Of a stretch of DNA of 64,000 bases, positions 7,912-24,261 are shown piece by piece. Location: positions 5,248 to 69,247 of the forward strand of contig NZ_JAAFKF010000002.1 in the NCBI RefSeq assembly GCF_013299175.1, in the 5' to 3' direction. Position numbers and translations under genes: made by a program. Below the pieces are notes generated by a model that worked only from the letters and a program-made list of their open reading frames with translations, was not told the DNA's origin and ran no database searches. Source of the DNA: Sphaerotilus sp. GTDB lineage: Bacteria; Pseudomonadota; Gammaproteobacteria; Burkholderiales; Burkholderiaceae_C. Position 1 is the first letter of the stretch; each line of letters starts with the position of its first letter.

Positions 7912-9191
7912 CGGGGGGCTTGGTCGCCGCGCAGGAAGAGCCGCGTCACCGCCTCGACCATCTGCGCGCGCTGCTGGGGATCGGCGTTGTGCAGCTCGGC
8001 GAGGGCGCCGTGCAGCATCTTCTGGGTCAGGCTGCGCGCCAGGGCGTCTAGCGCCTCCTCGGGCGAGCTGCCTTTGGCGATGAGCTTGCGGGCACGGGCC
8101 ACTTCGGTCTGGCGCCAGTGGTCAGCCTGGGCGTGAACGGCCTGGATCAGCGGGACTGTTGCGCGCTGGTCCAGCCAGTGGACGAAGTTCTGCACGCCGG
8201 ACTCGATGATCGCCTCGGCCTGCGCGACGGCGGCCTGGCGCTTTTCTCCGGCGGTCTGCACCACGGCCGCCAGGTCATCGACGGTGTAGAGGTACACGTC
8301 GTCGAGCTGCGCCACCTCGGGTTCGATGTCGCGCGGCACGGCCAGATCGACCATGAACATCGGCCGCCGCCGCCGGGCCTTCAGCGCGCGCTCGACCGCG
8401 CCCAGCCCGATCAGCGGCAGCGTGCTGGCGGTGCAGGAGATGACGGCGTCGAACTCGTGCAGCCGCGCCGGCAGGTCCGACAGCCGCATCACCTCGGCGC
8501 CGAACTGGCTCGCCAGCTTCTCGCCGCGCTCCAGCGTGCGGTTGGCGATGGTGATGTGCTTCGGGGCCTTGGCGGCGAAGTGGGTCGCGGCGAGTTCGAT
8601 CATCTCGCCCGCACCGACGAACAGGATGCGGATCTGGCTCAGGTCTTCGAACAACTGCCCGGCCAGCCGCACCGCCGCCGCCGCCATGCTGATCGAGTGC
8701 GCGCCGATCTCGGTGGCGGTGCGGACTTCCTTGGCGACCGAGAACGAGCGTTGAAACAACTGGTGCAGCGTCGTGCCCAGCGTGCCGGCGGTGTCGGCTT
8801 CGCGCACGGCCTGCTTCATCTGGCCGAGGATCTGCGCTTCGCCCAGCACCATCGAGTCCAGCCCGGACGCCACCCGGAACGCATGGCGCGCGGCCTCCTG
8901 GCGCTCCAGCACATGCGTGTGGCGCACCAGTTCATCGGCCGAGACCTTGCCGTGCGCGGCCAGCCATTCGAGCGTGGGACGCACCAGCGCGCGGCTGTCC
9001 CCGAGGCCGCCGGCGATGTACAGCTCGGTGCGGTTGCAGGTGGACAGCAGGGCGGCTTCCGGTGCGGCGCGGTGCAGGCCGTCGCGCAAACCATGCAGGG
9101 CGGCCGGAATCTGCTCCAGCGTGAACGCAAAACGGCCCCGCAGATCGATCGGCGCGGTGTGGTGGTTCAAGCTGAGGGCAAAGACGCTCAT
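7908..9191 (-). CDS. hemA: Glutamyl-tRNA reductase
   Basis: [41 protein letters not shown]. Confidence 0.97.
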
Positions 9192-9273
9192 GGCGCGATT
9201 GTAAGATTCCGCGTTGGCCAGTGCTTTCCTTGGCGCTCCCGCATGCGCCCCGGCATGGGCGCGGATTGAAACC

Positions 9274-9552
9274 ATGGGTCCGCTCGACGCCATCTGGCAT
9301 TTGTTCAACTTCCTGCTCGCGCCGATCGGTCTCGGGCTGATCGCGGCCTCGCTGTGCAAGCTGGCATGGTGGCGTGCGCTGCGGGCCGTGCGCTGGAGCT
9401 GGCTGGCGCTGCCGGCGGCCGGTGTCGCGGTGCTGATCCAGATCCTCTTCCTGGTGTGGCTCGGACGCGACGGACGCATGTCCACCTATGCCGCCCAGGT
9501 GGTCGGGGTGGCACTGGTGCTGTGGTGGACGGCGTTCGGGCTGCGCCGGTGA
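9274..9552 (+). CDS. Small hypothetical membrane protein
   Basis: 92-aa ORF with about three hydrophobic segments, divergent from hemA. Confidence 0.6.
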
Positions 9553-9560
9553 TGCGTTTT

Positions 9561-10535
9561 TCAGCCGAGTGATCTGCTCGGGACAGGTGTCCCGCTGCAG
9601 CGCGGGTGGGTCTGCCAGGGGTCGCGGTCCTCGCCGCCGAAGGTGCGCAGCAGGAAATCCCAGAACACCCGCGTGCGGGCCGGCACAGGCTTGCGTGTGG
9701 GCATCGTCAGCCACAGATCGAAGCGCATCGCATGCCAGCCCGGCAGCACCCGCTCCAGCGTGCCGTCGCGCAGCGCGTCCTCCACCACCAGCGACATCAG
9801 CCCCGCGATGCCCAGCCCGGCCAGCGCCGAGGCATGGAGCGTGTCCGTGTGCGCTGTCGTCAGCAGCGGGCGGTGTGGCGGATGCACGCGGACGGCGGTA
9901 CGGCCATCCTCATGCACGAACGTGACGTCCCGCTGCATCATGGAAGTCGGGGGCAGCAGCATCTGGTGCTGCTCCAGCCCTCGCGGTGTCTCGGGTCGCC
10001 CGGCGTGGTCGAGGTAGGCGGGCGAGGCACACAGGATGACCTCGCTGCGTGCAAGCCGGCGCGCGATGAAGTCGCCTTCGGGGGCTTCGCGCAGCGCCAT
10101 CACGGTGATGTCGTGGAGGTCGTGCAGGTCGTCCGGTCCACTGAACTCGGTGGTGGAGTTCAGCGACAGCGTGACCTGCGGATAGTCGGCGTGGAAGGCG
10201 GGCAGGTGCTTGGCGAGCTGGTGGACCGCGAAGGCCGACGGCACCATCACCCGCAGGTTGCCCTGTGGCGACTCCGAGAGAGACTGGATCTGCGCCGCGG
10301 ACTCGTCCACATCGGCCAGGATGTGGCGCACGCGCTCCAGGTAACGCTCGCCGACGCTGCTCAGCGCCAGACTGCGGGTGGTGCGCTGGATGAGCCGCGC
10401 ACCGAGGTGTTCTTCGAGTTCGGCAATCAGCCGGGTGACGACCGCAGGGGCCAGGTCGAGGGCACGGGCGGCGCCCGCGAAACTCCCCTCGTCGATGACA
10501 CGGGCAAACACCCGCATCGCGCGCAATTGATCCAT
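9561..10535 (-). CDS. LysR family regulator (CrgA/DmlR-like)
   Basis: MDQLRAMRVFARVIDEGSFAGAARAL HTH, LEEHLGARLIQRTTR. Confidence 0.9.
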   Translation of the reverse strand: MDQLRAMRVFARVIDEGSFAGAARALDLAPAVVTRLIAELEEHLGARLIQRTTRSLALSSVGERYLERVRHILADVDESAAQIQSLSESPQGNLRVMVPSAFAVHQLAKHLPAFHADYPQVTLSLNSTTEFSGPDDLHDLHDITVMALREAPEGDFIARRLARSEVILCASPAYLDHAGRPETPRGLEQHQMLLPPTSMMQRDVTFVHEDGRTAVRVHPPHRPLLTTAHTDTLHASALAGLGIAGLMSLVVEDALRDGTLERVLPGWHAMRFDLWLTMPTRKPVPARTRVFWDFLLRTFGGEDRDPWQTHPRCSGTPVPSRSLG

Positions 10536-11454: not shown

Positions 11455-12837
11455 TCAGCGCACCACGACTTCGCCCCGCAGCGAGTGCGGCAGTGCGCTC
11501 AGGATGGTCACGTCGAGCATTTCACCGACCAGCCGTGCCGGGTTCGGCCCGCCGGGGAAGTTGACGATGCGGTTGCACTCAGTGCGGCCCATCAGCTCGG
11601 TCGGATCCTTTCGGCTCGGGCCTTCGACGAGGATGCGTTGCACGGTGCCGACCCGGCTGGCACTGATGCGGCGCACGTTCTCCTCGATCGTGGCTTGCAG
11701 GTGCTGCAGGCGCTTCAACTTCACGTCGGCCGGCGTGTCGTCGAGCAACGCGGCGGCGGGTGTGCCGGGGCGCGGGCTGAAGATGAAGCTGAAGCTGGAA
11801 TCGAAGCCGATGTCCTCGATCAGCTTCATCGTGCGGGCGTGGTCGTCGTCGGTCTCGCCGGGGAAGCCGACGATGAAGTCGGTGGACAGGCAGATGTCCG
11901 GCCGCACCGCGCGGATCTTGCGGATCGTGCTCTTGTACTCCAGCGTCGTGTAGCCGCGCTTCATGCCCGAGAGGATGCGGTCGCTGCCGTGCTGCACGGG
12001 CAGGTGCAGGTGGTTCACGAGCTGCGGCACCTTGGCGTAGACATCGACCAGGCGCTGCGTGAACTCGTTCGGGTGGCTGGTGGTGTAGCGGATGCGCTGG
12101 AGTCCGGGGATCTCGGCGACGTACTCGATGAGCATCGCGAAGTCGGCGATCTCGGCCGTGCCACCCATCTTGCCGCGGTACGCGTTGACGTTCTGGCCGA
12201 GCAGCGTGACCTCCTTGACGCCCTGGTCGGCGAGCCCGGCCACCTCGGTCAGCACTTCCTCGAACGGCCGGCTGAACTCCTCGCCGCGCGTGTAGGGCAC
12301 GACGCAGTACGAGCAATACTTCGAGCAGCCTTCCATGATCGAGACGAAGGCGGAGGCGCCGTCCACCCGCGCCGGGGGAAGGTGGTCGAACTTCTCGATC
12401 TCGGGGAAGCTGATGTCCACCTGCTGGCGGCCCAGCGTCTTGCGGCGCTCCAGCAGTTGCGGCAGGCGGTGCAGCGTCTGCGGGCCGAACACCACGTCCA
12501 CGTAGGGCGCGCGCTCGATGATGGCCGCACCTTCCTGGCTGGCGACACAGCCGCCCACGCCGATCATCACGCCCTTGGCCTTCAGGTGGCGCACGCGGCC
12601 GAGGTCGCTGAACACCTTCTCCTGCGCCTTCTCGCGCACCGAGCAGGTGTTGAACAGGATCAGGTCGGCCTCTTCGGGGTCGTTGGTCGGGGTGTAGCCC
12701 TCGGCGGCGTGCATCACATCGGACATCTTGTCCGAGTCGTACTCGTTCATCTGGCAGCCGAAGGTGCGGATGTAGACCTTCTTGCCGGTGGGCGTGGGGG
12801 AGGGGGAGGGGGAGGAGGGCAGGGTGTCGGTGGTCAT
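11455..12837 (-). CDS. miaB: tRNA methylthiotransferase MiaB
   Basis: [20 protein letters not shown], radical [12 protein letters not shown]-terminal TRAM domain. Confidence 0.97.
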
Positions 12838-13271
12838 GGTGTAGATCCAGCGGCCGAAAGGGACGCGATCTTACCGGCTGGACCTGGGGTCGCCTGGGTC
12901 CGCGTGGTACTGCCACAAGTACCGATTCGTTCCGTGAAGGGGTCTTGATGGTACCAATTCGTGTCAAGGCGTAGCAAAAGTGTCGATCAGGCTCAATATG
13001 TGAGCCAGTCAGCGGTAGATTCGCAGTCTGTGCATGTTCAAATCGGGTCTGCATGTGGGATTTGATGCATATTTGAAAAAATCGACCAAGCTGGTCCGAC
13101 AAAGCCCGCAACAGCCTGTGGTATGGGACGGTCGCGTTTTTCGTGCTGCGGTTTCCCTGGTTCATGGGGCACGGCAGCGTGATTGGGCGACGGACAGGCT
13201 GGTCGTCGCTACCATCGGTTACAGGCAGCGGCATCTGCATTCCGCCTGTTCCCGTGCGGTGATCCACCCTC

Positions 13272-13298
13272 TGCAGTCTTGGATGAAGTTGCCGATAT
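13272..13298 (+). promoter_or_regulatory. Putative sigma28 (FliA)-type promoter
   Basis: TGCAGTCT-N11-GCCGATAT versus consensus TAAAGTTT-N11-GCCGATAA (5/8 and 7/8, exact spacing). Confidence 0.5.
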
Positions 13299-13347
13299 GA
13301 ACTGGTCACACAACGCTCAGCAGCAGCCACGATGGGGACACAGCACC

Positions 13348-13737
13348 ATGCGATTCGGCCGTACAAAACAGCGCGGCGACCCCGTGCAGGAACACATCGA
13401 CTGTCTGGTGGGCTGCGGCACGACCGTGACGGGCGATCTGACGTTCGCGGGGGGCTTGCGCATTGATGGCCATGTCGAGGGTGACGTGATCGTCTCGCCG
13501 GCCATTCCGGGGACGCTGGTGATCGGCGACCAGGGCAGTGTGGCCGGGGACGTGCGGGTGTCGCACCTGATCGTGTTCGGCCGGGTGCTGGGCACGGTCT
13601 ACGCCAGCGGACTGGTGGATCTGCGCATCAGCGCCCAGGTGGCGGGTGATGTGCATTACGGTGCAATCGAGATCGAGAAGGGCGCGGTGGTCGAAGGCCA
13701 TCTCGTCAAACACAAGACGGCGGGTACGGTGCAATGA
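13348..13737 (+). CDS. Bactofilin (polymer-forming cytoskeletal protein)
   Basis: IDCLVGxGTTVTGDLTFAGGLRIDGHVEG...LVIGxxGSVxGDV...GRVxG...VxGDVHYGAIEIEKGAVVEG; alternative start 13297. Confidence 0.92.
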   Translation: MRFGRTKQRGDPVQEHIDCLVGCGTTVTGDLTFAGGLRIDGHVEGDVIVSPAIPGTLVIGDQGSVAGDVRVSHLIVFGRVLGTVYASGLVDLRISAQVAGDVHYGAIEIEKGAVVEGHLVKHKTAGTVQ

Positions 13738-14396
13738 GCGGTGTTCAGTCGGTGATCGGGGCGTCGGACCCCATGTTCGTGTTCGCCCGAGCCGGGCGGC
13801 TGGACTGTCCGTCGAGCACGGATGTGCAGGACGCCTGGCGCCATTTTTCCATCCAGGTCGCCCGCGATCCGCTCGACATCGAGGCCCACACGCGCCGCGT
13901 GCTGCTGGCCAGTCGGCCGCCGCTGACCGACCGGGCCTTCGGGGCGCTGGTGGATCTGTTCCTGGCGCTCGGCGACCACGGTCGGGGTCTGCGCCGGCAG
14001 TTGCTGGAGCAGGCGATGCCCTGGCTCGATCCCGACGACGCCCATTTCCTGCGCACGCACCTGGATACACGCCTGTCCCGCGGCGCGCAGTTGCCGACCC
14101 AGCGCTGGTCGGTGCTGGACACGGCCGTCCTGGGTTCGCTGGACATGGTGGGGCTGCAGCGCCGCCAGGTCGCCCAGGAAACACCGTTCCAGCAGGCCAT
14201 GTCGTTACTTGAATATGGCGATCTGGCAGGCGCGCGTGGCATGCTGGAGGTCGCGCTGCTGGAAGAGCCTGACAATGAGGAAGTCAACCGCGAACTGCTG
14301 GCCATCTACCAGCACAGCCGGGACGACGCAGGCAAGGCCGACATGGCCGACAAGCTTGTCGCACGCCACGGCGCGCTGCCTTCGGGTTGGGCTTGA
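13734..14396 (+). CDS. Hypothetical protein with C-terminal TPR-like helices
   Basis: ATGA overlap with bactofilin stop; C-terminal AMSLLEYGDLAGARGMLEVALLEEPDNEEVNRELLAIY is TPR-like. Confidence 0.7.
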   Translation: MSGVQSVIGASDPMFVFARAGRLDCPSSTDVQDAWRHFSIQVARDPLDIEAHTRRVLLASRPPLTDRAFGALVDLFLALGDHGRGLRRQLLEQAMPWLDPDDAHFLRTHLDTRLSRGAQLPTQRWSVLDTAVLGSLDMVGLQRRQVAQETPFQQAMSLLEYGDLAGARGMLEVALLEEPDNEEVNRELLAIYQHSRDDAGKADMADKLVARHGALPSGWA

Positions 14397-14461
14397 GACG
14401 CTGTCCAGCGTTCCGAGCAGACATCCCAGCCGATCGATCTATGACTTTGAGCCTGTAGTCA

Positions 14462-16199
14462 GTGGAAGCCACCAAGCTGCAAACCCGATTGAAGGTCGTC
14501 CTTCTGTCACTGCCCCCACGCACCCAGGCGGTGCTGGATTTCTTCTTTTCGAGCACAGGACGCAGCAGTTTTGCGCCGTCGAGCGAAGAGGCTGCCGACG
14601 TGGCCATCTTCGACTTCGATACGCTGGAGTCGCGCCAGCACTGGGAACGCTGGCATGGACGGCGCGGCGGCCCTGGCATCGCCCTGTCCACCCAGTCCCA
14701 GGACGTGGACTCGGCGATCTGGGTGCAAAAGCCGGTGACGCCGGCGGCCTTGCTCGCGGCGGCCGCGGAGCTGCGCACGCGGCGCTGGAGCGGCGGTGTT
14801 GCGGTGTCTGCACCGGCGGCTCCTGCGGTGGTGCCGGCCCCGGCGCCGGTGCCTGCGCTCCCGCCAATCGCTGAACTGTCGACATGGACGGAGAGTCCTG
14901 CTCCTGCAACTGCGCCCGCTGCCGTGGTGCGGCCGGTCGCGCCACGGCCGGTGGTGGCCTCGCCTGCGCCTGCACCAAGTGGCGGATTGGGGGGGCTGTT
15001 TCGCCGGATCTTCAACAAGTCCGCACCCGTTGCGGCGCCCGTTGCCGCACCTGCTCCGACGCTGGCTCCGGCGCCTGTGCCGCCCCCATTGCCGGTTACT
15101 GCGCCGGTTACTGCGCCGGTTACTGCGCCGGTTACTGCGCCACAAGTCCGCACCCGTTGCGGCGCCCGTTGCCGCACCTGCTCCGACGCTGGCTCCGGCG
15201 CCTGTGCCGCCCCCATTGCCGGTTACTGCGCCGGTTACTGCGCCGGTTACTGCGCCGGTTACTGCGCCGGTTACTGCGCCTGCGCCTGCGCGCACACCGA
15301 TCCCCGTGCCCCCGGCGGTCCCCGCAGCACCAGTGGTCAAGCCTGCGCCCATACCGCCCCCGCCTCCGCCGAAACCTGCACCGCTGCCAGCCCCCACGCC
15401 AGCACCTGCTCCGGTGCTGGCCCCGCCGGCCCCTGTGCCTGCACCCGCCGCCGTGGCCGCACCCGTCCACGATGCCCATGGCCACCGCCGCCCGCGCCCC
15501 GAGGAACTGGTCGAGGAATCCCGCTACTGCGGCCAGCGTGCCGATGTGGCCGATGCCGCCCAACTGGCCGATGGCAGCCTGCGCTACGACCCGGCCCAGC
15601 ACCTCGTGGGCGTGCTCAAGGATGCTTACCTGGTCAGTTGCAAGTGGCAAGTGCCGACCCACCTCGACAGCACCGCCGGCCGCATCACCGTCGATGGCAC
15701 CACCAACCTCATCTACTGCGAGTTCAACGCCGAGCAGCTCGCTGCGCTGGTGGGCAAACCCCTCGACAAGCGGCCCAAGACGCGCGCATTCAGCCGCCAG
15801 GAGTTCGCCGATCTGCAGGGCACGCTGGAGAAGAAAGCCTTGGTGCAGCGGCTCGACCATGTGCTGTGGCAGACCGCGCTGGAGACCTCGGCAGGCCGGC
15901 TGCCGGTTGGCGTGGACCCGGTCGCTCCGGTCTACCTCAAGCACTGGCCCAATCTGACCCGTCTGCACCGCACGCCGCACGCTTTGCGCATTGCGGCCTT
16001 GTGGACCACCAGGGGCGCAGGGTTGCTGGAGACGGCCCTGACGCTCAAGATCGCCCAGCGCCACGTGTTCGCGTTCTACAACGCGGCACTGGCCCTGGAT
16101 CTGATCACTGAAGACGGCGCGCAGGTCCGCAGGGCACAGCGCAAGACCAAGAACAACCGCGGTCTGCTGACCCGCTTGTTCGGCTGGCTGAACAAATAA
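14462..16199 (+). pseudogene. Atypical receiver domain - Pro/Ala linker - conserved C-terminal domain protein, frameshifted by a 127-bp duplication (possibly artefact)
   Basis: N-part in frame of 14462 (LKVVLLS, ADVAIFDFD, GIALS, VQKP); C-part in frame ending at 16199. Removing 15015-15141 leaves 1611 nt = one intact 536-aa ORF. Confidence 0.75.
15015..15280 (+). repeat. 127-bp direct tandem duplication containing 12-bp VNTR GCCGGTTACTGC (4 copies, then 5 copies)
   Basis: ACAAGTCCGCACCCGTTGCGG... starts at 15015 and again at 15142; 12-mer arrays at 15091-15138 and 15218-15277 encode PVTA repeats. Confidence 0.95.
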
Positions 16200-16204
16200 G
16201 CAAC

Positions 16205-16741
16205 ATGGCCCAAACCGATCACAAAATCATCTTCACCGGCCCTGTCGGTGCAGGCAAGACCACGGCCATCGCCTCGATCAGCGACATCGAGCCGATCCGC
16301 ACCGACGAACATGCGTCGGACATGACCCAGAAGCGCAAGTCCGCCACCACCGTGGCCATGGACTACGGAATGATCCGTCTGGGCCCGAAGGAGAAGGTCC
16401 ACCTGTACGGCACGCCCGGCCAGGAACGCTTCGACTTCATGTGGGACATCCTGACCAAGGGCGGGATCGGACTGGTGCTGTTGCTCGACAACACGCGCCC
16501 GACGCCGTTCGAGGACATGCGCTTCTACATCAAGGCGTTCAAGGAGTTCATCGATGGCACCCGGCTCGTGATCGGCGTGACGCAGATGGACGCCCGTCCG
16601 ACGCCCACCATCGACGAGTACGTGCGCCAGCTGGCCGAGCTGGACGTGTCCGCGCCCGTCTTCGAGGTGGACGCCCGCCAGCGCACCGATGTCTCGACGC
16701 TGATCGAGGCCCTGCTGCTCCAGATCGACCCGACCCTCTGA
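16205..16741 (+). CDS. MglA/CvnD-like small GTPase
   Basis: G1 GPVGAGKTT, G2 TTVAMDYG, G3 LYGTPGQERF, G4 VTQMD, G5 DAR. Confidence 0.92.
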   Translation: MAQTDHKIIFTGPVGAGKTTAIASISDIEPIRTDEHASDMTQKRKSATTVAMDYGMIRLGPKEKVHLYGTPGQERFDFMWDILTKGGIGLVLLLDNTRPTPFEDMRFYIKAFKEFIDGTRLVIGVTQMDARPTPTIDEYVRQLAELDVSAPVFEVDARQRTDVSTLIEALLLQIDPTL

Positions 16742-16763
16742 CCCGGTAACTTCCGCGCCACCC

Positions 16764-17405
16764 ATGGACCATTACACCCTCACTGGCGAGTTCTACCTCC
16801 ACCCGACGCCGGCGGGTGCCTACTACGCCGCCAGCCGGCCCACCCGTGATCCAGCACGGCTGTTCCTGCAGCGGCTGCTGCGCGAATCCGAGACGCCACG
16901 CCTGACCGCCGACCTGGTGCAGGACTGGATGTCGATGGGGCAGCAGGACGCGCTGGAGTTCATCTACCGCCTGCAGTCCTCGGGCTTCGTGCAAGGGCTG
17001 CCGATGCACGTCGAGGTGCCGCCCGACTCGATCGAGGCGATGCTGCCGCCGTTGCTGGCGCAGTTGTCCGACGAGGGCAAGGCGATCCTGGCCGACAAGC
17101 GCGGTCTGTACCTGGGCACCGCCGGCTTTGCGCATGAGACGGCCGAAGAACTCGCCGCACTCGGCGGTGACCTGGCCAGCGTCCACGAGCGCCACGCGCG
17201 GCTGCTGCACGGCAACATGCGCCTGCGCAGCGACGGCTGGGGCATGGTGAACGCCGCGGGCTACTGCGAAGTCGGTTTCTGGCCGCTGTACTTCGGCGAC
17301 GACTACTTCATCCTGATCGTCAATGGCATGCCACGGTTCAACCAGGAAGCCTTCACCACGCTGGTGTGGACCCTGGGTGTGCGCTACGGCAACACGGCCT
17401 TCTGA
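16764..17405 (+). CDS. Hypothetical protein; probable N-terminal helical/wHTH region plus roadblock/longin-like C-terminal domain
   Basis: C-half (AILADKRGLYLGTAGF...EELAALGGDL...VGFWPLYFGDDYFILIV) follows the roadblock strand/helix pattern; sits between the GTPase and MglB. Confidence 0.6.
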   Translation: MDHYTLTGEFYLHPTPAGAYYAASRPTRDPARLFLQRLLRESETPRLTADLVQDWMSMGQQDALEFIYRLQSSGFVQGLPMHVEVPPDSIEAMLPPLLAQLSDEGKAILADKRGLYLGTAGFAHETAEELAALGGDLASVHERHARLLHGNMRLRSDGWGMVNAAGYCEVGFWPLYFGDDYFILIVNGMPRFNQEAFTTLVWTLGVRYGNTAF

Positions 17406-17456
17406 TGTCCATTTCCCTCCCCCGATCTCCCTTTTTTCTCTCGAAGGAACTGCCCC

Positions 17457-17819
17457 ATGCGTGAAGACCTGCTGAACTCGATCCTGAGCGAACTCAACGG
17501 ATCCACCGCCGACATCGAAGCCTCGGCCGTGTTGTCCACCGACGGCCTGATGATGGCCTCGATGCTGCCGGCCGGCATGGACGAGGACCGCGTGGGTGCC
17601 ATGAGCGCCGCCATGCTGTCGCTGGGCGACCGCACTTCGCGCGAACTCGCCCGCGGCGAGCTGGAGCAGGTGCTGGTCAAGGGCGCCAAGGGTTATGTGC
17701 TGATGACGTACGCGGGCAAGGACTCGGTGCTGACGGCGCTGTGCAAACCGAATTCGCGTCTGGGCCTGATCTTCCTCGACGTGAAGCGCGCCGCCGACGC
17801 CATCAGCAAGGTCATCTGA
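17457..17819 (+). CDS. Roadblock/LC7 (MglB-like) protein
   Basis: ASAVLSTDGLMMAS, DRVGAMSAAMLSLG, LEQVLVKGAKGYVLM, LGLIFLDVKRAA. Confidence 0.93.
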   Translation: MREDLLNSILSELNGSTADIEASAVLSTDGLMMASMLPAGMDEDRVGAMSAAMLSLGDRTSRELARGELEQVLVKGAKGYVLMTYAGKDSVLTALCKPNSRLGLIFLDVKRAADAISKVI

Positions 17820-17846
17820 TCGGTCGGTCGAGATCGAGGGAAATCG

Positions 17847-18344
17847 ATGATGACCGATATGAGTGAGGCGGATCTGGTCCCCGCAGCGCCGCACCGTGCG
17901 CTGACGTTGAGCTACCACGATGGGCGTACCCGTCGTGTGCTGGTCAACGACCAGGAGGTGCCGTACCCGGATGGCATGCTGATCGTCTCGCGCACCGACT
18001 CGGCGGGCATCATCACGCACGCCAACCAGGCGTTCGTGGACATGTCGGGCTATGCACGCGACGAGCTGATCGGCGAGAGCCACTGCATCCTGCGCCACCC
18101 GGACATGCCGACGGCCGCGTTCCATGACCTGTGGGACACGGTCAAGCGTGGTGCCAAGTGGCAGGGCTACGTGAAGAATCTGCGCAAGGATGGCGCGCAT
18201 TACTGGGTCTTCGCCACCGCGATCCCCAATGTGCGCGAGGGCCGCGTCGTGGGCTACACGTCGGTGCGCCGCAAGCCTTCGCGCGCCAAGGTCAACGACT
18301 GCATCGCGCACTATGCGCGGCTGCGCAGCGAGGAGCTGAAGTGA
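17847..18344 (+). CDS. Stand-alone Aer-type PAS domain protein
   Basis: IVSRTD...ITHANQAFVDMSGY...ELIG..HCILRHPDMPxAAFxDLW...WxGYVKNLRKDGxHYWV, close to the FAD-binding PAS of E. coli Aer; no transmembrane or MCP domain. Confidence 0.9.
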   Translation: MMTDMSEADLVPAAPHRALTLSYHDGRTRRVLVNDQEVPYPDGMLIVSRTDSAGIITHANQAFVDMSGYARDELIGESHCILRHPDMPTAAFHDLWDTVKRGAKWQGYVKNLRKDGAHYWVFATAIPNVREGRVVGYTSVRRKPSRAKVNDCIAHYARLRSEELK

Positions 18345-19090
18345 CCCTGGAACTGACCGTCAGCCCGGACTTCTCGCCCGAGCACATCGCCGGCTGGTAC
18401 GTGTTCAACACCTGGCTGCAGCGCAAGCTTGGCGTGCGGATCCACCTGGAGCTGTACGAGGATTTTTCTACCCAGCGCCAGGCGATCGCGGCAGATCGGG
18501 TAGACCTGATCTACGCCAATCCCTACGACGCGGCCGTGCTGGTGCGCGAGAAAGGGTTCGTGGCCATCGCCGCGCCGCAGGGCAAGGCCGACGAGGTGGT
18601 GATCGCCGTGCCGGCCAGCTCGCCTGCGCAGACCGTGGAAGACCTGCAGCCGGGGTTGCGCCTGGCCATGACCCACGACCCGGATGTGAACCTGATCGGC
18701 ATGATCCTGCTGGAATCGGCCGACCTGACCCGCGACAACACGCAGGCACAGCAGGTTTCGACCTACGTCGTGCTCGCCCGCGCCCTGCTGCAAGGCAAGG
18801 CGGACTGTGGTTTCTTCCTTCAGGAAGCGTTCGATGACCTGAGCGCCCCGATCCGCCGCCAGTTGCGCCCGCTGATGACCAGCCAGATCAGTCTGGTTCA
18901 CCATGTGCTGCTGGTCGGGCCGCGGTGCGCAGCGCTGCGCGAGCCGCTGCAGGCGCTCTTGCTGGGCATGTCGGCGCCGGGCTCGGATGGCCGCGCCACG
19001 CTGCAAGCCCTTGGCCTGCGTGGCTGGGACAAGCAGGATCAGGAAGACACCGAATTCATGATCGACCTGATGGACACCTTGATGGTGTGA
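18341..19090 (+). CDS. PhnD/SsuA-like (PBP type 2) solute-binding protein lacking a signal peptide
   Basis: GTG overlaps PAS stop; DLIYANPYDA, SSPAQTVEDL, LLQGKADCG motifs; N-terminus not hydrophobic. Confidence 0.8.
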   Translation: MTLELTVSPDFSPEHIAGWYVFNTWLQRKLGVRIHLELYEDFSTQRQAIAADRVDLIYANPYDAAVLVREKGFVAIAAPQGKADEVVIAVPASSPAQTVEDLQPGLRLAMTHDPDVNLIGMILLESADLTRDNTQAQQVSTYVVLARALLQGKADCGFFLQEAFDDLSAPIRRQLRPLMTSQISLVHHVLLVGPRCAALREPLQALLLGMSAPGSDGRATLQALGLRGWDKQDQEDTEFMIDLMDTLMV

Positions 19091-19098
19091 AAACGGAC

Positions 19099-20163
19099 AT
19101 GTTGCGACCCCCCCTGAAGCGTCACCTCCTCCCCCTTGCGCTGGCCCTGTCGGCCGGACCTGTTCTGGCCCAGACTTCGTCGGCCGGCGCACCCGCGCCG
19201 ACGCAGCGCACGACGGTGGAGCAGGACAACCTCTGGGACATCGCCGGCCAGCTTGCCCCGGCCATGGGTGCCACGCGCCAGCAGGTCATGGTGGCGGTGC
19301 TGCGCCGCAACCCGGACGCCTTCGTCAAGGGCAACATCCACCGCCTGCGCCGCGGCGTGCCGCTGGTGCTGCCTGGGCAGAGCGAGGTGCTGGCCGAGGA
19401 CCGTGCGGGTTCGGTGGCGCTGGTTGCCGACCACTTGAAGGCGCTGCGGGGCGGGGCTGTGCTGACGCCGCTGGTTCCGCGTGCAGCGACCGAAACGCCC
19501 GCGCCACCGGTTGCTCCGTCGCCACCCCCCCCGCCTCCCGCACCGGTGGCGCCACCGCCCGCACCGGCTTCTGTCCCCACTCCGGTCGAGAAACCCGCGT
19601 CGGCGGTGGAGCCTGCGGCACCGGTCGCATCGGCTGCACCACCCATCCCGGCCGAGCCGGTCGCCTCCGCGCCCGTGGCGGTGGCGGCTGCATCCGAGGT
19701 GGCCAGTGCCGCGGTCGGTGGCGGTTCGGCGTCGCGGGTGTTGCCGTGGTTGCTGGGGCTGGGCGCGTTGACTGGTGGCGTGATCCTGTGGCGCCGTCGG
19801 CGGGCCGGATTCCAGCCGGATGGGCCGGCACCGGACTTCACGAACACGCTGAGTGCCACGCGCACTGGCGGCCCGCGGGTGTTCGACATCTCGAATGCGG
19901 CCGCCGAGATGGCCCGCTCGGTGGAAACCTCGCAAGCCGCGACCCAACTGGTGCGCAGCAACGCCAGCGCCGGTGCCGACGTTGGGGATGAGGTGGATGT
20001 GTCCCGCTTGGCGGAGCAAGCCGCCATCAAGCTCGACATCGCCCGCGCCAGCCTGGAGCTTGGCCGCACGGACAGTGCGCGGGCGCTGCTGCTGGCGGTG
20101 GTGCGCGAAGGCTCCGGGCGCCATGCGGCGGAGGCCGCCGAGATTCTCGCGCGCATGGGCTGA
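19099..20163 (+). CDS. Compact FimV/HubP-like polar landmark protein
   Basis: Signal peptide; FimV N-domain NLWDIA...QQVMVAVLRRNPDAFVKGNIHRLRRG; Pro/Ala linker; TM LPWLLGLGALTGGVILWRRRR; FimV C-domain KLDIARASLELG...ARALL..VVREG. Confidence 0.82.
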   Translation: MLRPPLKRHLLPLALALSAGPVLAQTSSAGAPAPTQRTTVEQDNLWDIAGQLAPAMGATRQQVMVAVLRRNPDAFVKGNIHRLRRGVPLVLPGQSEVLAEDRAGSVALVADHLKALRGGAVLTPLVPRAATETPAPPVAPSPPPPPPAPVAPPPAPASVPTPVEKPASAVEPAAPVASAAPPIPAEPVASAPVAVAAASEVASAAVGGGSASRVLPWLLGLGALTGGVILWRRRRAGFQPDGPAPDFTNTLSATRTGGPRVFDISNAAAEMARSVETSQAATQLVRSNASAGADVGDEVDVSRLAEQAAIKLDIARASLELGRTDSARALLLAVVREGSGRHAAEAAEILARMG

Positions 20164-20167
20164 GGGC

Positions 20168-20188
20168 GAGAGACCGGCCCGGTCTCTC
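20168..20188. terminator. Hairpin between convergent operons
   Basis: GAGAGACCGG / CCGGTCTCTC inverted repeat just after the FimV-like stop; no clear U-tract. Confidence 0.45.
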
Positions 20189-20211
20189 GGGCCGTTTCAG
20201 CCCAGCTCAGC

Positions 20212-20982
20212 TCAGATCAGTTTACGTGGCGAGAACTGGCGGGCCGCCGGGATCTGCTCCGCTGACCGCACCGCGCGGGTCAGCACCTGGTCCGCATCGA
20301 TCGGGCCCAGTGCCTCGCACAGCGCCACATAGAACTGGTGGACAAGCTGCGAGAGTTCGGCCGGCGTGCCGTCGATCACCCAGGACACCTGCATCGGCTG
20401 TGCCCAGGCATCGCGCACCTGCTTGCGCACGGGCTGCGAAAGGCGGCCCTGGTCGAGCTGCTCCAGCGCGCTGCTGCGCAAGTCGGTCAGCGAACCCGCG
20501 TGAAAGCGTTGCACCTCGGTGAGCGCATTGCGCAGCAGTTCGGCGCAGACCACCCGGTCCGGTGATGCGGGTGGTGCGGCCGGGGCGGGGGGCAGGGCTG
20601 TCACCATCGGCTGCGAGGTGCCCGCTGCCGATGCCGCTGGATCGAAGGGTGTGGCTGCGGCACTGGCCGGCATGGGCGCTGGAGCGGGGGTGGGTGCAGC
20701 GGGGGTGCCGATCTGCATCAGCGGCCAGGGGTCCATCGGCAGCTCGCTTTCAGGCTGCTTCAGGGCCTTGAAGTACGCCTCGTAGAGCTTCTTGCGGCTG
20801 GCGGCGTCGATGTGGTTGCGCGCGGCCACCTGGTCGATGTAGCCGATGATGTCGGACACCGAATCGCCACGCATCGACTGGTGCTGCATCCGCAGCGCAT
20901 CGAGCAGGGCGTCCTCCTCCAGCAGCGGCGACAGCACGGCGTAGGCGGCGCGGCGCCGCTGGGACAGGGCTTGGGTGGCCAT
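20212..20982 (-). CDS. Hypothetical cytoplasmic helical protein, two domains joined by a Pro/Ala linker
   Basis: 256-aa ORF, AAGGA RBS inside the amt 3' end, ATG 4 nt after amt stop. Confidence 0.75.
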   Translation of the reverse strand: MATQALSQRRRAAYAVLSPLLEEDALLDALRMQHQSMRGDSVSDIIGYIDQVAARNHIDAASRKKLYEAYFKALKQPESELPMDPWPLMQIGTPAAPTPAPAPMPASAAATPFDPAASAAGTSQPMVTALPPAPAAPPASPDRVVCAELLRNALTEVQRFHAGSLTDLRSSALEQLDQGRLSQPVRKQVRDAWAQPMQVSWVIDGTPAELSQLVHQFYVALCEALGPIDADQVLTRAVRSAEQIPAARQFSPRKLI

Positions 20983-20986
20983 CGCG

Positions 20987-22201
<1,215 letters not shown>

Positions 22202-22278
22202 CGCTTCGAGCACCCGCAGAATTGGACTTGGACATCGGACTACAGCCGTCTGGAGCCGGATTCTGGCCGAATTTGCAG

Positions 22279-22295
22279 GGCAAAGACGATGCCAA
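22279..22295 (-). promoter_or_regulatory. Sigma54 -24/-12 promoter of amt
   Basis: Minus strand TTGGCATCGTCTTTGCC = GG-N10-GC, matches TGGCAC-N5-TTGC consensus. Confidence 0.75.
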
Positions 22296-22298
22296 TTG

Positions 22299-22311
22299 AA
22301 TCAAAGGCTTA
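22299..22311 (+). promoter_or_regulatory. IHF binding site
   Basis: AATCAAAGGCTTA = WATCAA-N4-TTR, directly upstream of the sigma54 element. Confidence 0.65.
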
Positions 22312-22316
22312 CAGCA

Positions 22317-22347
22317 CCCTAAAGTGAAAAAATCACACACTTTAGGG
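22317..22347. promoter_or_regulatory. Perfect 10-bp inverted repeat, candidate activator site
   Basis: CCCTAAAGTG-N11-CACTTTAGGG. Confidence 0.5.
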
Positions 22348-22451: not shown

Positions 22452-23357
22452 TCAGGCTGGAAACACGCCCGTGGAGAGGTAGCGGTCGCCGCGGTCGCAG
22501 ACGATGAAGACAATCGTGGCACCGCGCACCTGCTGCGAGAGCTGCAGCGCAGCCCAGCAAGCACCCGCCGCCGAGATGCCCGCGAACAGCCCTTCCTCGC
22601 GGGCCATGCGGCGGGCCATGTCTTCGGCGTCGGCCTGGCTGACCAGCACCAGCTCGTCCACGCGGCGCGGCTCGTAGATCTTCGGCAGGTAGGCTTCCGG
22701 CCATTTGCGGATGCCGGGGATGCGCGAGCCTTCGGACGGCTGCGCACCGATGATGCGCACGGCCGGGTTCCGCTCCTTCAGGTAGCGCGAAGTGCCGGTG
22801 ATGGTGCCGGTGGTGCCCATGGCGCTGACGAAGTGGGTGATCTGGCCGTCGGTGTCCTGCCAGAGTTCGGGGCCGGTGGTCTCGTAGTGGATGCGCGGGT
22901 TGTCGGCGTTGGCGAACTGGTCGAGCACGCGGCCCTTGCCGTCGCGCGCCATCTGCTCGGCGAGGTCGCGGGCGTATTCCATGCCGCCGGCCTTGGGCGT
23001 GAGGACCAGTTCGGCACCGAACGCCTTCATCGTCTGGGCGCGTTCGATGGAGAGATCCTCCGGCATGATCAGCACCATCCGGTAGCCGCGCACGGCCGCC
23101 GCCATGGCCAGCGCGATGCCGGTGTTGCCCGAGGTGGCTTCGATCAGGGTGTCGCCGGGCTGGATCTCGCCGCGCTCCTCGGCCCGGCGGATCATGCTGA
23201 TGGCCGGGCGGTCTTTCACCGAGCCGGCCGGGTTGTTGCCTTCGAGCTTGGCCAGGAGGACGTTGCCACGCTCGGTGGCGTCGGCGCCGGGCAGCCGCTG
23301 CAGGCGCACAAGCGGGGTGCGGCCGATCACGTCTTCGATGGTCTGGTAGGCGGGCAT
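22452..23357 (-). CDS. cysM: Cysteine synthase B
   Basis: GRTPLVRL, KLEGNNPAGSVKDR, EATSGNTGI, SAMGTTGT, CDRGDRYLSTG. Confidence 0.95.
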   Translation of the reverse strand: MPAYQTIEDVIGRTPLVRLQRLPGADATERGNVLLAKLEGNNPAGSVKDRPAISMIRRAEERGEIQPGDTLIEATSGNTGIALAMAAAVRGYRMVLIMPEDLSIERAQTMKAFGAELVLTPKAGGMEYARDLAEQMARDGKGRVLDQFANADNPRIHYETTGPELWQDTDGQITHFVSAMGTTGTITGTSRYLKERNPAVRIIGAQPSEGSRIPGIRKWPEAYLPKIYEPRRVDELVLVSQADAEDMARRMAREEGLFAGISAAGACWAALQLSQQVRGATIVFIVCDRGDRYLSTGVFPA

Positions 23358-23497
23358 GGGGGTGGTCTCCGGAGGTGGCGCAGCGCCGATGTGGCACATT
23401 TTGGCAGCATGGCCGCGGGCGCGCTGCCGTTGATCGAAGCGGCGTTTGTCCATGCCATAATCGCGGCTTCGCGCCGTACGCAGCGCGACACCCACCT

Positions 23498-23585
23498 GCC
23501 GGAGTGGCGAAATCGGTAGACGCAGCGGATTCAAAATCCGCCGCCCTCAACAGGCGTGCCGGTTCGAGTCCGGCCTCCGGCACCA
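23498..23585 (+). tRNA. tRNA-Leu (anticodon CAA)
   Basis: GCCGGAGTGGCGAAATCGGTAGACGCA, anticodon stem GCGGA-TTCAAAA-TCCGC, long variable arm, GGTTCGAGTCC, 3' CCA. Confidence 0.97.
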
Positions 23586-23655: not shown

Positions 23656-24261
23656 ATGCCCCAGCTCCCCCCCGTCACCAAAGCATTGATGCTGATCTGC
23701 ACGGCGATGTACTGCCTGCAGATGCTCGCGGGGTACTGGGTCGAAACGCTGTTCGCGCTGTGGCCGCTGGGCAGCGGGCCGTTCATGCCGTGGCAGTTGA
23801 TCACCTATGCCTTCCTGCACGGCAGCATGGGCCACCTGTTCTTCAACATGCTGGGCCTGTGGATGTTCGGTGCCGAGCTGGAGTCGGTCTGGGGCCGCCA
23901 GCGTTACCTGCAGTTCCTCGCGGCCAGCGCACTGGCGGGCGGCGTGGTGCAGTTGCTGGTGGTCAGCCTGGGTGTCACTGGGGGCGGTCCGACGCTGGGT
24001 GCATCGGGCGCTCTGTATGGGCTGCTGATGGCCTTCGGGATGATGTTCCCCGACCGCACGATCATGCCGCTGTTCCCGCCCATCCCGATGAAGGCCAAGG
24101 TCTTCGTGCTGGTGTTCGGCGGGATGGAGCTGCTGTTCGGTCTGGCGGGTGCGGGTGGCGTGGCCCATTTCGCACACCTCGGCGGCATGCTGGGTGGCTG
24201 GCTGACGCTGCGCTTCTGGCGTGGTCTGCCGCCGTTTCCCCCGAAGCAGCGCCGCCGCTGA
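23656..24261 (+). CDS. Rhomboid family intramembrane serine protease
   Basis: WQLITYAFLH, HLFFNM, GASGA, AHFAHLGG. Confidence 0.93.
   Translation: MPQLPPVTKALMLICTAMYCLQMLAGYWVETLFALWPLGSGPFMPWQLITYAFLHGSMGHLFFNMLGLWMFGAELESVWGRQRYLQFLAASALAGGVVQLLVVSLGVTGGGPTLGASGALYGLLMAFGMMFPDRTIMPLFPPIPMKAKVFVLVFGGMELLFGLAGAGGVAHFAHLGGMLGGWLTLRFWRGLPPFPPKQRRR

Follow-up and report, generated by a model that had tools for sequence, protein, structure and literature searches.

No bacterial polarity switches are better understood than MglA-type GTPases, although this holds only for Myxococcus and a few of its relatives, and the inputs that reach such switches outside the Frz pathway are a question on which the locus described here bears. 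The locus is an operon of nine plus-strand genes at positions 13297-20163 of a 64,000-nucleotide stretch of Sphaerotilus sp. DNA (hereafter the window), which lies on contig C112 of a 4.0-Mb draft assembly of 201 contigs; the nearest relatives of the genome are Sphaerotilus metagenome-assembled genomes (MAGs) and isolates. A first-pass annotation had proposed that these genes, together with a convergent ammonium transporter gene, form an undescribed GTPase-based polarity or sensing system. This raises the questions of whether the system is indeed new, which of the genes belong to it, and what they may do together. We propose, with a probability of roughly 0.7, that the locus represents the Group 3 MglA small-GTPase system in an extended form, with proposed sensor, scaffold, and polarity wiring.

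A gene map built by open reading frame (ORF) picking guided by third-codon-position GC content (GC3) and by family scans, along with profiles and structure models, recovered all nine genes with the identities first proposed for them, in the order bactofilin (B), tetratricopeptide repeat (TPR)-like protein (T), receiver-like protein (R), GTPase (G), long Roadblock (L), Roadblock (M), PAS protein (P), PhnD-fold binding protein (S), and mini-FimV (F). The genes are tightly spaced or overlapping, as had been reported; junctions span a 4-nt overlap to a 65-nt gap, with the bactofilin stop overlapping the T start by 4 nt and the S start overlapping the PAS stop. The block encodes neither a kinase nor a methyl-accepting chemotaxis protein (MCP), also in agreement with the initial description.

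The assignment turns on G (16205-16741, +), which encodes a 178-aa small GTPase that matches PF03029 (ATP_bind_1) and PF00071 (Ras) and has Thermus MglA (3t12) as its closest PDB structure. Wuichet and Sogaard-Andersen (Genome Biol Evol 2014/2015, PMC4316618) described Group 3 MglA systems in beta- and gamma-proteobacteria as comprising an MglA homolog with a G4 motif without Lys and a G5 motif that reads DAR; a conserved "DUF" (domain of unknown function) protein that combines a receiver-like N-region with a variable linker and a C-region predicted by Phyre2 to be winged helix-turn-helix (wHTH)-like; and either one homolog of MglB or two. The window GTPase lacks the conserved G4 Lys (context GVTQMD) and carries DAR in G5 (context FEVDAR), and its motifs G1 (GPVGAGKTT), G3 (LYGTPGQ), G4 (TQMD), and G5 (VDAR) are conserved in 81 orthologs. 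The protein is 85% identical to a 178-aa protein of Leptothrix cholodnii SP-6 (P0063), which we equated with Lcho_0655 because organism and length (178 aa) agree, not by accession; Lcho_0655 (178 aa) is classified in Table S2 of the same study as Group 3 with the gene order DUF>MglA>MglB>MglB (PMC4316618). Further listed members include NMB0476, Metme_1347, and MEALZ_2464, and the same 1:2 layout is found in Neisseria meningitidis, Methylomonas, Methylomicrobium, Acidithiobacillus, and Teredinibacter (PMC4316618). All four marks of a Group 3 system, i.e., the GTPase motifs, the adjacent DUF architecture, the downstream Roadblocks, and orthology to a listed member, are thus found in the window. 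Judged from these marks, R, the GTPase, and the two Roadblocks are the already catalogued Group 3 MglA core, and to call the system "undescribed" was too strong, as the Leptothrix ortholog of this four-gene core is listed by locus tag (PMC4316618).

What the window locus has in common with Group 3 is the GTPase family, the upstream DUF gene, the downstream MglB/Roadblock genes, and the taxonomic range; by contrast, published Group 3 systems stop at three or four genes, with the TPR-like gene, the PAS protein, the binding protein, the bactofilin, and FimV unmentioned ("PAS" occurs 0 times in the text of PMC4316618). No earlier description of the accessory set of T, an Aer-type PAS protein, and a signal-less PhnD-fold protein was found in the literature searched. 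New here are also the bactofilin/mini-FimV subclade, two kinds of gene fusion, a MinD-like tail on R, and the recognition of a 127-bp duplication in R as an artefact. With regard to function, the literature searched yielded nothing relevant on this gene set or its locus tags, with the sole exception of a Snodgrassella study; in this evolution experiment, colony-edge flares were altered by a mutation in the orphan mglB of a strain that has a Group 3 system, and Snodgrassella mglB genes were found to aid host colonisation (PMC11112851). A protein homology search returned close relatives only and no named distant members. In one Methylococcaceae MAG (locus L045:7505-7900, minus strand), further matches to GTPase paralogs (54% identity) lie immediately upstream of the cluster, on the strand opposite to it.

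R (14462-16199, +) encodes a receiver-like domain, a Pro/Ala-rich linker, and a conserved C-domain. An AlphaFold2 (AF2) model of the intact ortholog from locus L002 showed a receiver fold at residues 10-106, a disordered linker of ~190 residues at 112-300, and a folded region at 310-543; receiver domains (2rdm, ArcA, CheY, and others) took up the Foldseek list obtained with the full-length model. R orthologs invariably have DxD where beta3 ends and KP in beta5, but in this lineage they lack the acidic pair that follows beta1 (alignment A3). R has no Response_reg match in scans against Pfam and NCBIfam. The extreme C-terminus (window 16150-16199) forms a basic amphipathic tail in all orthologs, with the pattern G-[LF]-[FL]-x-[RK]-[LI]-[LF]-x-[RK]-L (NRGLLTRLFGWLNK in the window, RGLFSRLLKRLLGGG in Thiothrix). 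This tail resembles the MinD membrane-targeting helix, the MinD of the window genome itself ending in PGFFKRLFG, and suggests peripheral membrane binding of R. By the comparisons made here, with RomR taken by description, R is not a RomR homolog: it lacks a Response_reg match and the acidic pair, and it has the folded C-domain and the tail.

In the window itself, an exact tandem duplication of 127 bp (15015-15141 = 15142-15268; Tandem Repeats Finder: period 127, 2.0 copies, 100% identity) splits R between two frames. In every relative, R is one intact ORF of 525-680 aa, and the window R comes to ~536 aa once the extra repeat copy is discounted. An assembly-wide scan for exact tandem duplications with a period of 25-400 bp identified 14 duplications of period 127 on 13 contigs (C1:72580, C2:46042, C13:20347, C13:45857, C24:14667, C28:4875, C112:20262, which is window position 15015, C118:27619, C126:36172, C149:3796, C152:11653, C161:8986, C180:57710, and C188:10723); no duplication in the whole assembly has another period between 68 and 400 bp, and the remaining 13 of period 127 sit in ordinary non-repetitive sequence. 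The largest k-mer in de Bruijn assemblers is usually 127, and the duplications resemble k=127 overlaps that were not trimmed at the joins between contigs. Because 14 duplications share this one period genome-wide while no other period of 68-400 bp is represented, we consider the duplication in R to be an assembly artefact, and R is best read as intact. A real frameshift or a phase-variable repeat in R was considered and rejected, given the 13 other duplications of the same period in unique sequence. The practical point is that, since 127 is not a multiple of 3, a gene that crosses one of these 14 artefactual duplications appears frameshifted when it is not.

Downstream of the GTPase gene lie two Roadblock genes, L (16764-17405, +; 213 aa) and M (17457-17819, +; 120 aa). 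The AF2 model of L (pLDDT, the predicted local distance difference test score, 90.8) consists of an N-terminal helical wHTH-like module of ~80 aa followed by a C-terminal Roadblock/MglB fold of ~125 residues, with Roadblock 3kye and MglB 6hjm as best Foldseek matches. Weak matches to Robl_LC7 and LAMTOR5 were found in 16/25 and 5/25 L orthologs, respectively, and the L family comprises 258 representative clusters. M is a canonical Roadblock/LC7 protein (PF03259, 1.4e-16) and the most conserved protein of the cluster, with 70-98% identity across orders; its PDB matches are 7f8m (1e-24) and cvnB5 3leq (4e-10), with MglB at 1e-3 by profile. An hhalign comparison of the L alignment (A1) with the M alignment (A2) was not significant, and the kinship of L and M emerged only via structure and weak per-member Pfam matches.

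The wHTH-like features of this core bear on an alternative to a spatial switch. A transcriptional role for Group 3 was suggested by Wuichet and Sogaard-Andersen (PMC4316618); R would then be a DNA-binding output, acting via the wHTH-like element in its C-domain, and the system would control gene expression instead of polarity. The published Phyre2 prediction for the R C-region (PMC4316618) favours this idea, as do stray matches of single R orthologs to HTH_29, HTH_23, or MarR_2 (E 0.03-0.07), the wHTH-like module of L, and the fact that the locus encodes no kinase or other output domain. However, the C-domain of R, which is confidently folded over ~230 aa, has no significant Pfam family and no PDB relative by profile search; the MinD-like amphipathic tail is universal among R orthologs and would be unusual in a DNA-binding regulator; and the conserved partners of the core are envelope- or pole-associated (FimV-like, bactofilin, SPOR, and OmpA proteins) rather than regulon genes. 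We thus regard a transcriptional switch as unlikely, though it is the most serious of the competing explanations, and retain a spatially acting Group 3 system as the likelier reading of the core.

Which of the remaining genes belong to this system was approached through gene order. More than 536 relatives of the GTPase were found in a species-level genome collection, and hidden Markov models (HMMs) for gene-order analysis were built from the best 80 of these loci. The order T-R-G-L-M is kept in all 80 related loci with enough flank, from Burkholderiales, Rhodocyclaceae, Thiotrichales, Methylococcales, Halothiobacillaceae, and Methylophaga, and P-S follows in most of them. The full order reads B-T-R-G-L-M-P-S-F in Sphaerotilaceae and one Rhodocyclaceae MAG; B'-T-R-G-L-M-P-S-F, with a divergent bactofilin gene, in Thiothrix and Thiolinea; B'-T-R-G-L-M-F in Leucothrix and Cocleimonas; T-R-G-L-M-P-S in Methylococcales; T-R-G-L-S-M-P-S in Halothiobacillaceae; and T-L-S-M-P-S … R-G in Methylophaga. 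A GTPase homolog is present in 60 of the 401 genomes (54 of the 321 genera) of a sample drawn evenly from the class; GTPases with less than ~54% identity sit in minimal R-G-M loci, whereas those above ~54% sit in full-type loci. The initial expectation that all components, including amt, co-occur across genomes therefore holds for T-R-G-L-M and, in most loci, P-S, and for the bactofilin and FimV-like genes in Sphaerotilaceae, Rhodocyclaceae, and Thiotrichales, but not for amt.

T (13734-14396, +), the conserved first gene of the full-type cluster, encodes a 220-aa helical protein that matches no Pfam family. Its conserved C-terminal motif, LEYGQLxxARxxLExALL, gives a profile match to the FimV C-terminal TPR (4mal, E 1.4e-3; alignment A4), and the T HMM cross-matches the canonical 920-aa FimV of the genome. 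P (17847-18344, +) encodes a 165-aa Aer-type PAS protein (orthologs 153-170 aa) that matches the Escherichia coli Aer PAS domain (8dik) at 5.6e-36 over 111 aligned residues, including RHPDMP and HYWV, and PAS_3 in Pfam at 7.9e-16. Aer shares the PAS domain and the RHPDMP motif with P but has a membrane anchor, a HAMP domain, and an MCP signalling domain; P, which ends right after the PAS domain, has no HAMP, MCP part, or membrane anchor and hence cannot signal through CheA. This free-standing PAS domain probably binds flavin adenine dinucleotide (FAD), as judged by its similarity to Aer. S (18341-19090, +) encodes a 249-aa cytoplasmic protein of the PhnD fold, a type 2 periplasmic-binding-protein (PBP) fold (PF12974, 1.1e-42), with phosphite-binding PtxB as the nearest, remote, solved structure (2e-4). 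Substrate-binding proteins of PhnD-family ATP-binding cassette (ABC) systems have a signal peptide and neighbouring transporter genes, whereas S has neither: it lacks a hydrophobic leader, its length is 246-256 aa in nearly all of 63 orthologs, and no permease or ATPase genes are present near S in any locus inspected. Among 16 sampled genomes with S orthologs of at least 45% identity, 12 have S within 2.5 kb of the GTPase gene on the same contig; in 2/16 contig ends probably separate the two genes, and 2/16 are unclear. Because its orthologs are found almost only beside the GTPase, we take S to be a dedicated part of the system. In Halothiobacillaceae-type loci (L013, at 11723-12894, L046, L054, L068, L074, L079, and L080), an extra divergent PBP-like gene lies between L and M, and L013 also carries a second copy of the short Roadblock gene; with such extra PBP-like genes in some loci, the sensor set appears expandable.

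The operon opens and closes with genes for candidate scaffold proteins. B (13297-13737, +) encodes a 146-aa bactofilin (PF04519, 1.3e-24; 86.8 bits against a cut-off of 27.9; profile positions 2-97 of 98), and its orthologs of 139-160 aa start at the equivalent ATG; a longer frame from a TTG at 13183 is unlikely. A second bactofilin paralog is located on contig C200, and by pairwise identity the window bactofilin is equally close to this paralog (38%) as to the Thiothrix bactofilins. F (19099-20163, +) encodes a 354-aa mini-FimV with matches to TIGR03505 (3e-17; 62.2 bits, cut-off 43.45) and TIGR03504 (1.6e-8; 34.4 bits, cut-off 30.65). It consists, in this order, of a signal peptide, a LysM-like FimV core, a Pro/Ala linker, one transmembrane (TM) helix, and a C-terminal FimV TPR; the TM segment as read from the sequence, VLPWLLGLGALTGGVILW, is followed by RRRR, and ~95 residues, the whole cytoplasmic part, separate it from the C-terminus. 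The polar landmarks FimV and HubP share with F the LysM-like core, the TM helix, and the C-terminal TPR, which is of the same type as that of T, but they have a long acidic cytoplasmic region between the TM helix and the TPR that the short F lacks. F is a paralog beside the canonical FimV, which is encoded on contig C64. In Thiothrix, Leucothrix, and Rhodocyclaceae loci, the gene at the corresponding downstream position also encodes the FimV core and C-terminal domains.

In the GTPase tree, a clade of Sphaerotilaceae and Rhodocyclaceae (100/96) is sister to a clade of Thiotrichaceae and Thiolinaceae (99/95), and the joint clade, nested among gammaproteobacterial groups, contains exactly the loci with bactofilin and FimV-like neighbours. 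Within the family to which the window genome belongs, sampled at 150 genera, a close GTPase ortholog was found only in the same genus, and 14 other genera have only paralog types (42-49%). The simplest reading of these data is that the whole cluster, bactofilin and FimV included, may have been transferred between Sphaerotilaceae/Rhodocyclaceae and Thiotrichales lineages. Other envelope genes occur beside the cluster elsewhere, where FimV-like genes are missing or come in addition: M. buryatense has a gene for a 564-aa SPOR-domain protein upstream of T (L122:5609-7303), and Thiothrix lacustris has an OmpA-family gene downstream of F (L124:14148-14897). These SPOR and OmpA-family neighbours are further envelope-anchoring proteins. 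Directly downstream of S in M. buryatense (L122:13468-18653), two tandem Uma2-family genes are followed by an AAA-ATPase_like/PDDEXK_9 gene; this is probably a mobile or defence-type pair in duplicate that has nothing to do with the GTPase system.

Conserved order within one family can reflect descent alone, and the bactofilin, sensor, and FimV-like genes could thus have been placed next to the Group 3 core by chance or shared synteny while functioning independently of it; consistent with this, Methylococcales loci are without bactofilin and FimV, and Leucothrix-type loci are without the PAS and binding proteins. Four observations argue against such a juxtaposition. First, the same partners recur across orders with overlapping start and stop codons; median gaps across taxa are 1 nt from G to L and 3 nt from P to S, and 22 of 63 P-S pairs overlap. 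Second, S orthologs are seen, as described above, almost only next to the GTPase. Third, the adjacency of the bactofilin gene survives a change in orientation, from the same strand in Burkholderiales to divergent in Thiotrichales. Fourth, natural fusions join T to L and R to G: the representative proteins P0197 and P0207 (~470 aa) are T-L fusions (hhalign 99.7%, E 5.8e-26), and at locus L106 (G160:C33:21000-40000) a single 513-aa frame at 8137-9675 combines the receiver-like N-domain, the C-domain without linker, and the GTPase. These fusions are Rosetta-stone indications that T may work with the Roadblock pair and R with the GTPase, and, along with the conserved overlapping junctions, they support the reading of the cluster as a single machine. 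We consequently judge independent juxtaposition to be very improbable and treat the accessory genes as extending the Group 3 core.

In the mechanism that we propose for this extended system, G would be the switch, cycling between nucleotide states, and L and M would form a heterodimeric Roadblock GTPase-activating protein (GAP) and/or guanine nucleotide exchange factor (GEF) on which T would dock. R would bind G directly and tether it to the membrane via the MinD-like amphipathic tail. P, sensing redox state or oxygen through a flavin, and S, sensing a small anion, would act as a pair of translationally coupled sensors and bias the nucleotide state, while the peptidoglycan-anchored mini-FimV and the bactofilin would tie the complex to one location, probably a pole; the FimV-type TPR common to T and F possibly reflects the same docking logic. 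A role in polarity or motility is plausible by analogy, from the FimV and bactofilin partners, and the likeliest output would be spatial control of a polar surface structure, with type IV pili as the best guess. Neisseria, Acinetobacter, and Dichelobacter have type IV pili and no flagella. All three are listed with Group 3 systems (PMC4316618); it is because of these piliated, non-flagellated genera, the colony-edge phenotype in Snodgrassella, and the presence of pilT/pilU in the window genome that we favour type IV pili.

Comparison with characterised GTPase systems sets this proposal apart. The MglA/MglB/RomR-RomX/MglC system of Myxococcus xanthus has, like the window locus, a Ras-like GTPase without the G3 Asp, Roadblock regulators including a divergent paralog (MglC), a receiver protein with a Pro-rich linker, and a bactofilin-GTPase pair (BacP-SofG), and it is linked to polar type IV pili. 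However, Myxococcus MglA belongs to Group 1 and has a canonical NKxD G4 motif and Thr at the G3 Asp position, whereas the window GTPase has TQMD and Gly (GTPGQ); RomR has a bona fide receiver, a Pro-rich linker, and a Glu-rich tail, whereas R has no Response_reg match, a folded domain, and an amphipathic tail; the Myxococcus partners are dispersed in the genome rather than united in one operon; and the input there is of the Frz chemosensory type instead of a PAS/PBP pair. The actinobacterial conservon and Mfp systems (Group 2; CvnA-D, MfpA-E) likewise combine a GTPase that has a non-canonical G4 and a DAR G5 with a Roadblock and a helical accessory protein, but they rely on the histidine kinase CvnA and on DUF742/CvnC, while the window sensors are a soluble PAS protein and a soluble binding protein; family scans of the operon proteins gave no match to HATPase, HisKA, or DUF742. 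Finally, the eukaryotic Ragulator-Rag complex, in which heteromeric Roadblocks regulate a small GTPase on a membrane scaffold in response to metabolites, is alike in logic; this is a functional analogy only, with homology shown for no more than the Roadblock and GTPase folds.

Several points weigh against the proposal. No experiment on any member of a full-type cluster was found in the literature searched, and localisation, the GAP and GEF roles, FAD binding, and the ligand of the binding protein are all predictions. The G4 motif is without the guanine-specifying Lys, so that even GTP as the nucleotide used is only presumed for this group, and the wHTH-like element that was reported for the C-domain of R (PMC4316618) would also fit a transcriptional output. 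The node that joins the two bactofilin/FimV-bearing clades has a support of only 88/93, and orthology of the bactofilins between the two orders is not discernible in such short sequences. In addition, the Methylococcales keep the cluster without either bactofilin or FimV, and these two components are consequently not obligatory.

About 15% of the gamma- and beta-proteobacterial genomes sampled carry Group 3 systems, among them Neisseria, Acinetobacter, Xanthomonas, and industrial methanotrophs. Candidate inputs (a flavin PAS protein and a cytoplasmic ligand-binding protein), a candidate adaptor (the TPR protein), and candidate addresses (mini-FimV and bactofilin) would turn the catalogued trio into a signalling model that is testable in genetically tractable hosts. 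A more specific suggestion, which we put forward as speculation that is probably wrong at least in part, is that the bactofilin/mini-FimV subclade is a horizontally shared, redox- or metabolite-gated polarity device of filamentous, sheath- or holdfast-forming bacteria, with Sphaerotilus and Leptothrix (beta) and Thiothrix, Thiolinea, and Leucothrix (gamma) as hosts. A redox signal via the flavin PAS protein and a cytoplasmic metabolite via the PhnD-fold protein would set the nucleotide state of the GTPase, which a peptidoglycan-bound mini-FimV and a patch of bactofilin would anchor at the pole. Such a device would decide where and when type IV pili, a holdfast, or the apparatus of motile swarmers or gonidia is built. 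It would then be the first switch of the MglA family for which dedicated chemical inputs are identified, and its logic would mirror that of Ragulator-Rag in bacteria.

With regard to the genes beyond the operon, the first-pass annotation had taken positions 13272-22347 as one unit, which includes two minus-strand genes that lie outside the conserved unit: unk256 (20212-20982), a 256-aa gene that matches no Pfam or NCBIfam family, and amt (20987-22213; PF00909, 6e-109, and TIGR00836). The window Amt is the divergent one of two ammonium transporters, with ~31% identity to the AmtB encoded next to glnK; the canonical glnK-amtB pair is located on contig C172 (1918-4051), and a second PII gene is also present in the genome. 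An integrated nitrogen-sensing module, in which Amt and its partner would feed an ammonium signal into the GTPase switch, might be read from the position of the two genes directly downstream of the operon, from a convergent arrangement that is kept in ~15 Sphaerotilus/Leptothrix-type loci, and from the absence of glnK next to the window amt. The distribution of the two genes speaks strongly against it: amt and unk256 occur only in loci of the Sphaerotilus/Leptothrix type and are missing from Burkholderiaceae locus L014 (cysM comes directly after F there), Rhodocyclaceae locus L020, and every gammaproteobacterial locus, and conservation in a single lineage is expected from inherited synteny alone. 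Moreover, convergent orientation implies separate transcripts, the genome has its canonical glnK-amtB pair and second PII gene elsewhere, and unk256 has a strong paralog on contig C160 (6110-6940), which has no Amt match. Judged by this distribution, the nitrogen-sensing idea is largely refuted, and we give it hardly any credence; the inclusion of Amt in the module was therefore dropped, and amt and unk256 are regarded as neighbours rather than components of the extended Group 3 system.

The operon lies, as first described, between miaB (11455-12837, -) and cysM (22452-23534, -) and converges on amt and one further gene; a rhomboid gene (23656-24261, +) follows cysM. The AT-richer flanks that had been reported are confined to two intergenic regions with a GC content of ~0.60, and nothing beyond those intergenic stretches is AT-richer. 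A genomic island was considered and rejected, as only these intergenic flanks are AT-richer and the location is syntenic within Sphaerotilaceae. A terminator scan gave two terminator-like matches, below the count in shuffled sequence and neither of them between the mini-FimV gene and unk256, and a sigma-70 scan gave no promoter-like site. A sigma-28-like sequence, GCCGATAT, at 13290-13297 overlaps the bactofilin ATG and is kept only in the closest relatives (L002-L006). A -10-like box (TACCAT, TAACAT, or TACAAT in a GCTACCATCG-type sequence) is present at window positions 13190-13230 and at the equivalent sites in L002-L019. The box lies ~75-100 nt upstream of where the bactofilin gene starts and is conserved among the Sphaerotilaceae loci.

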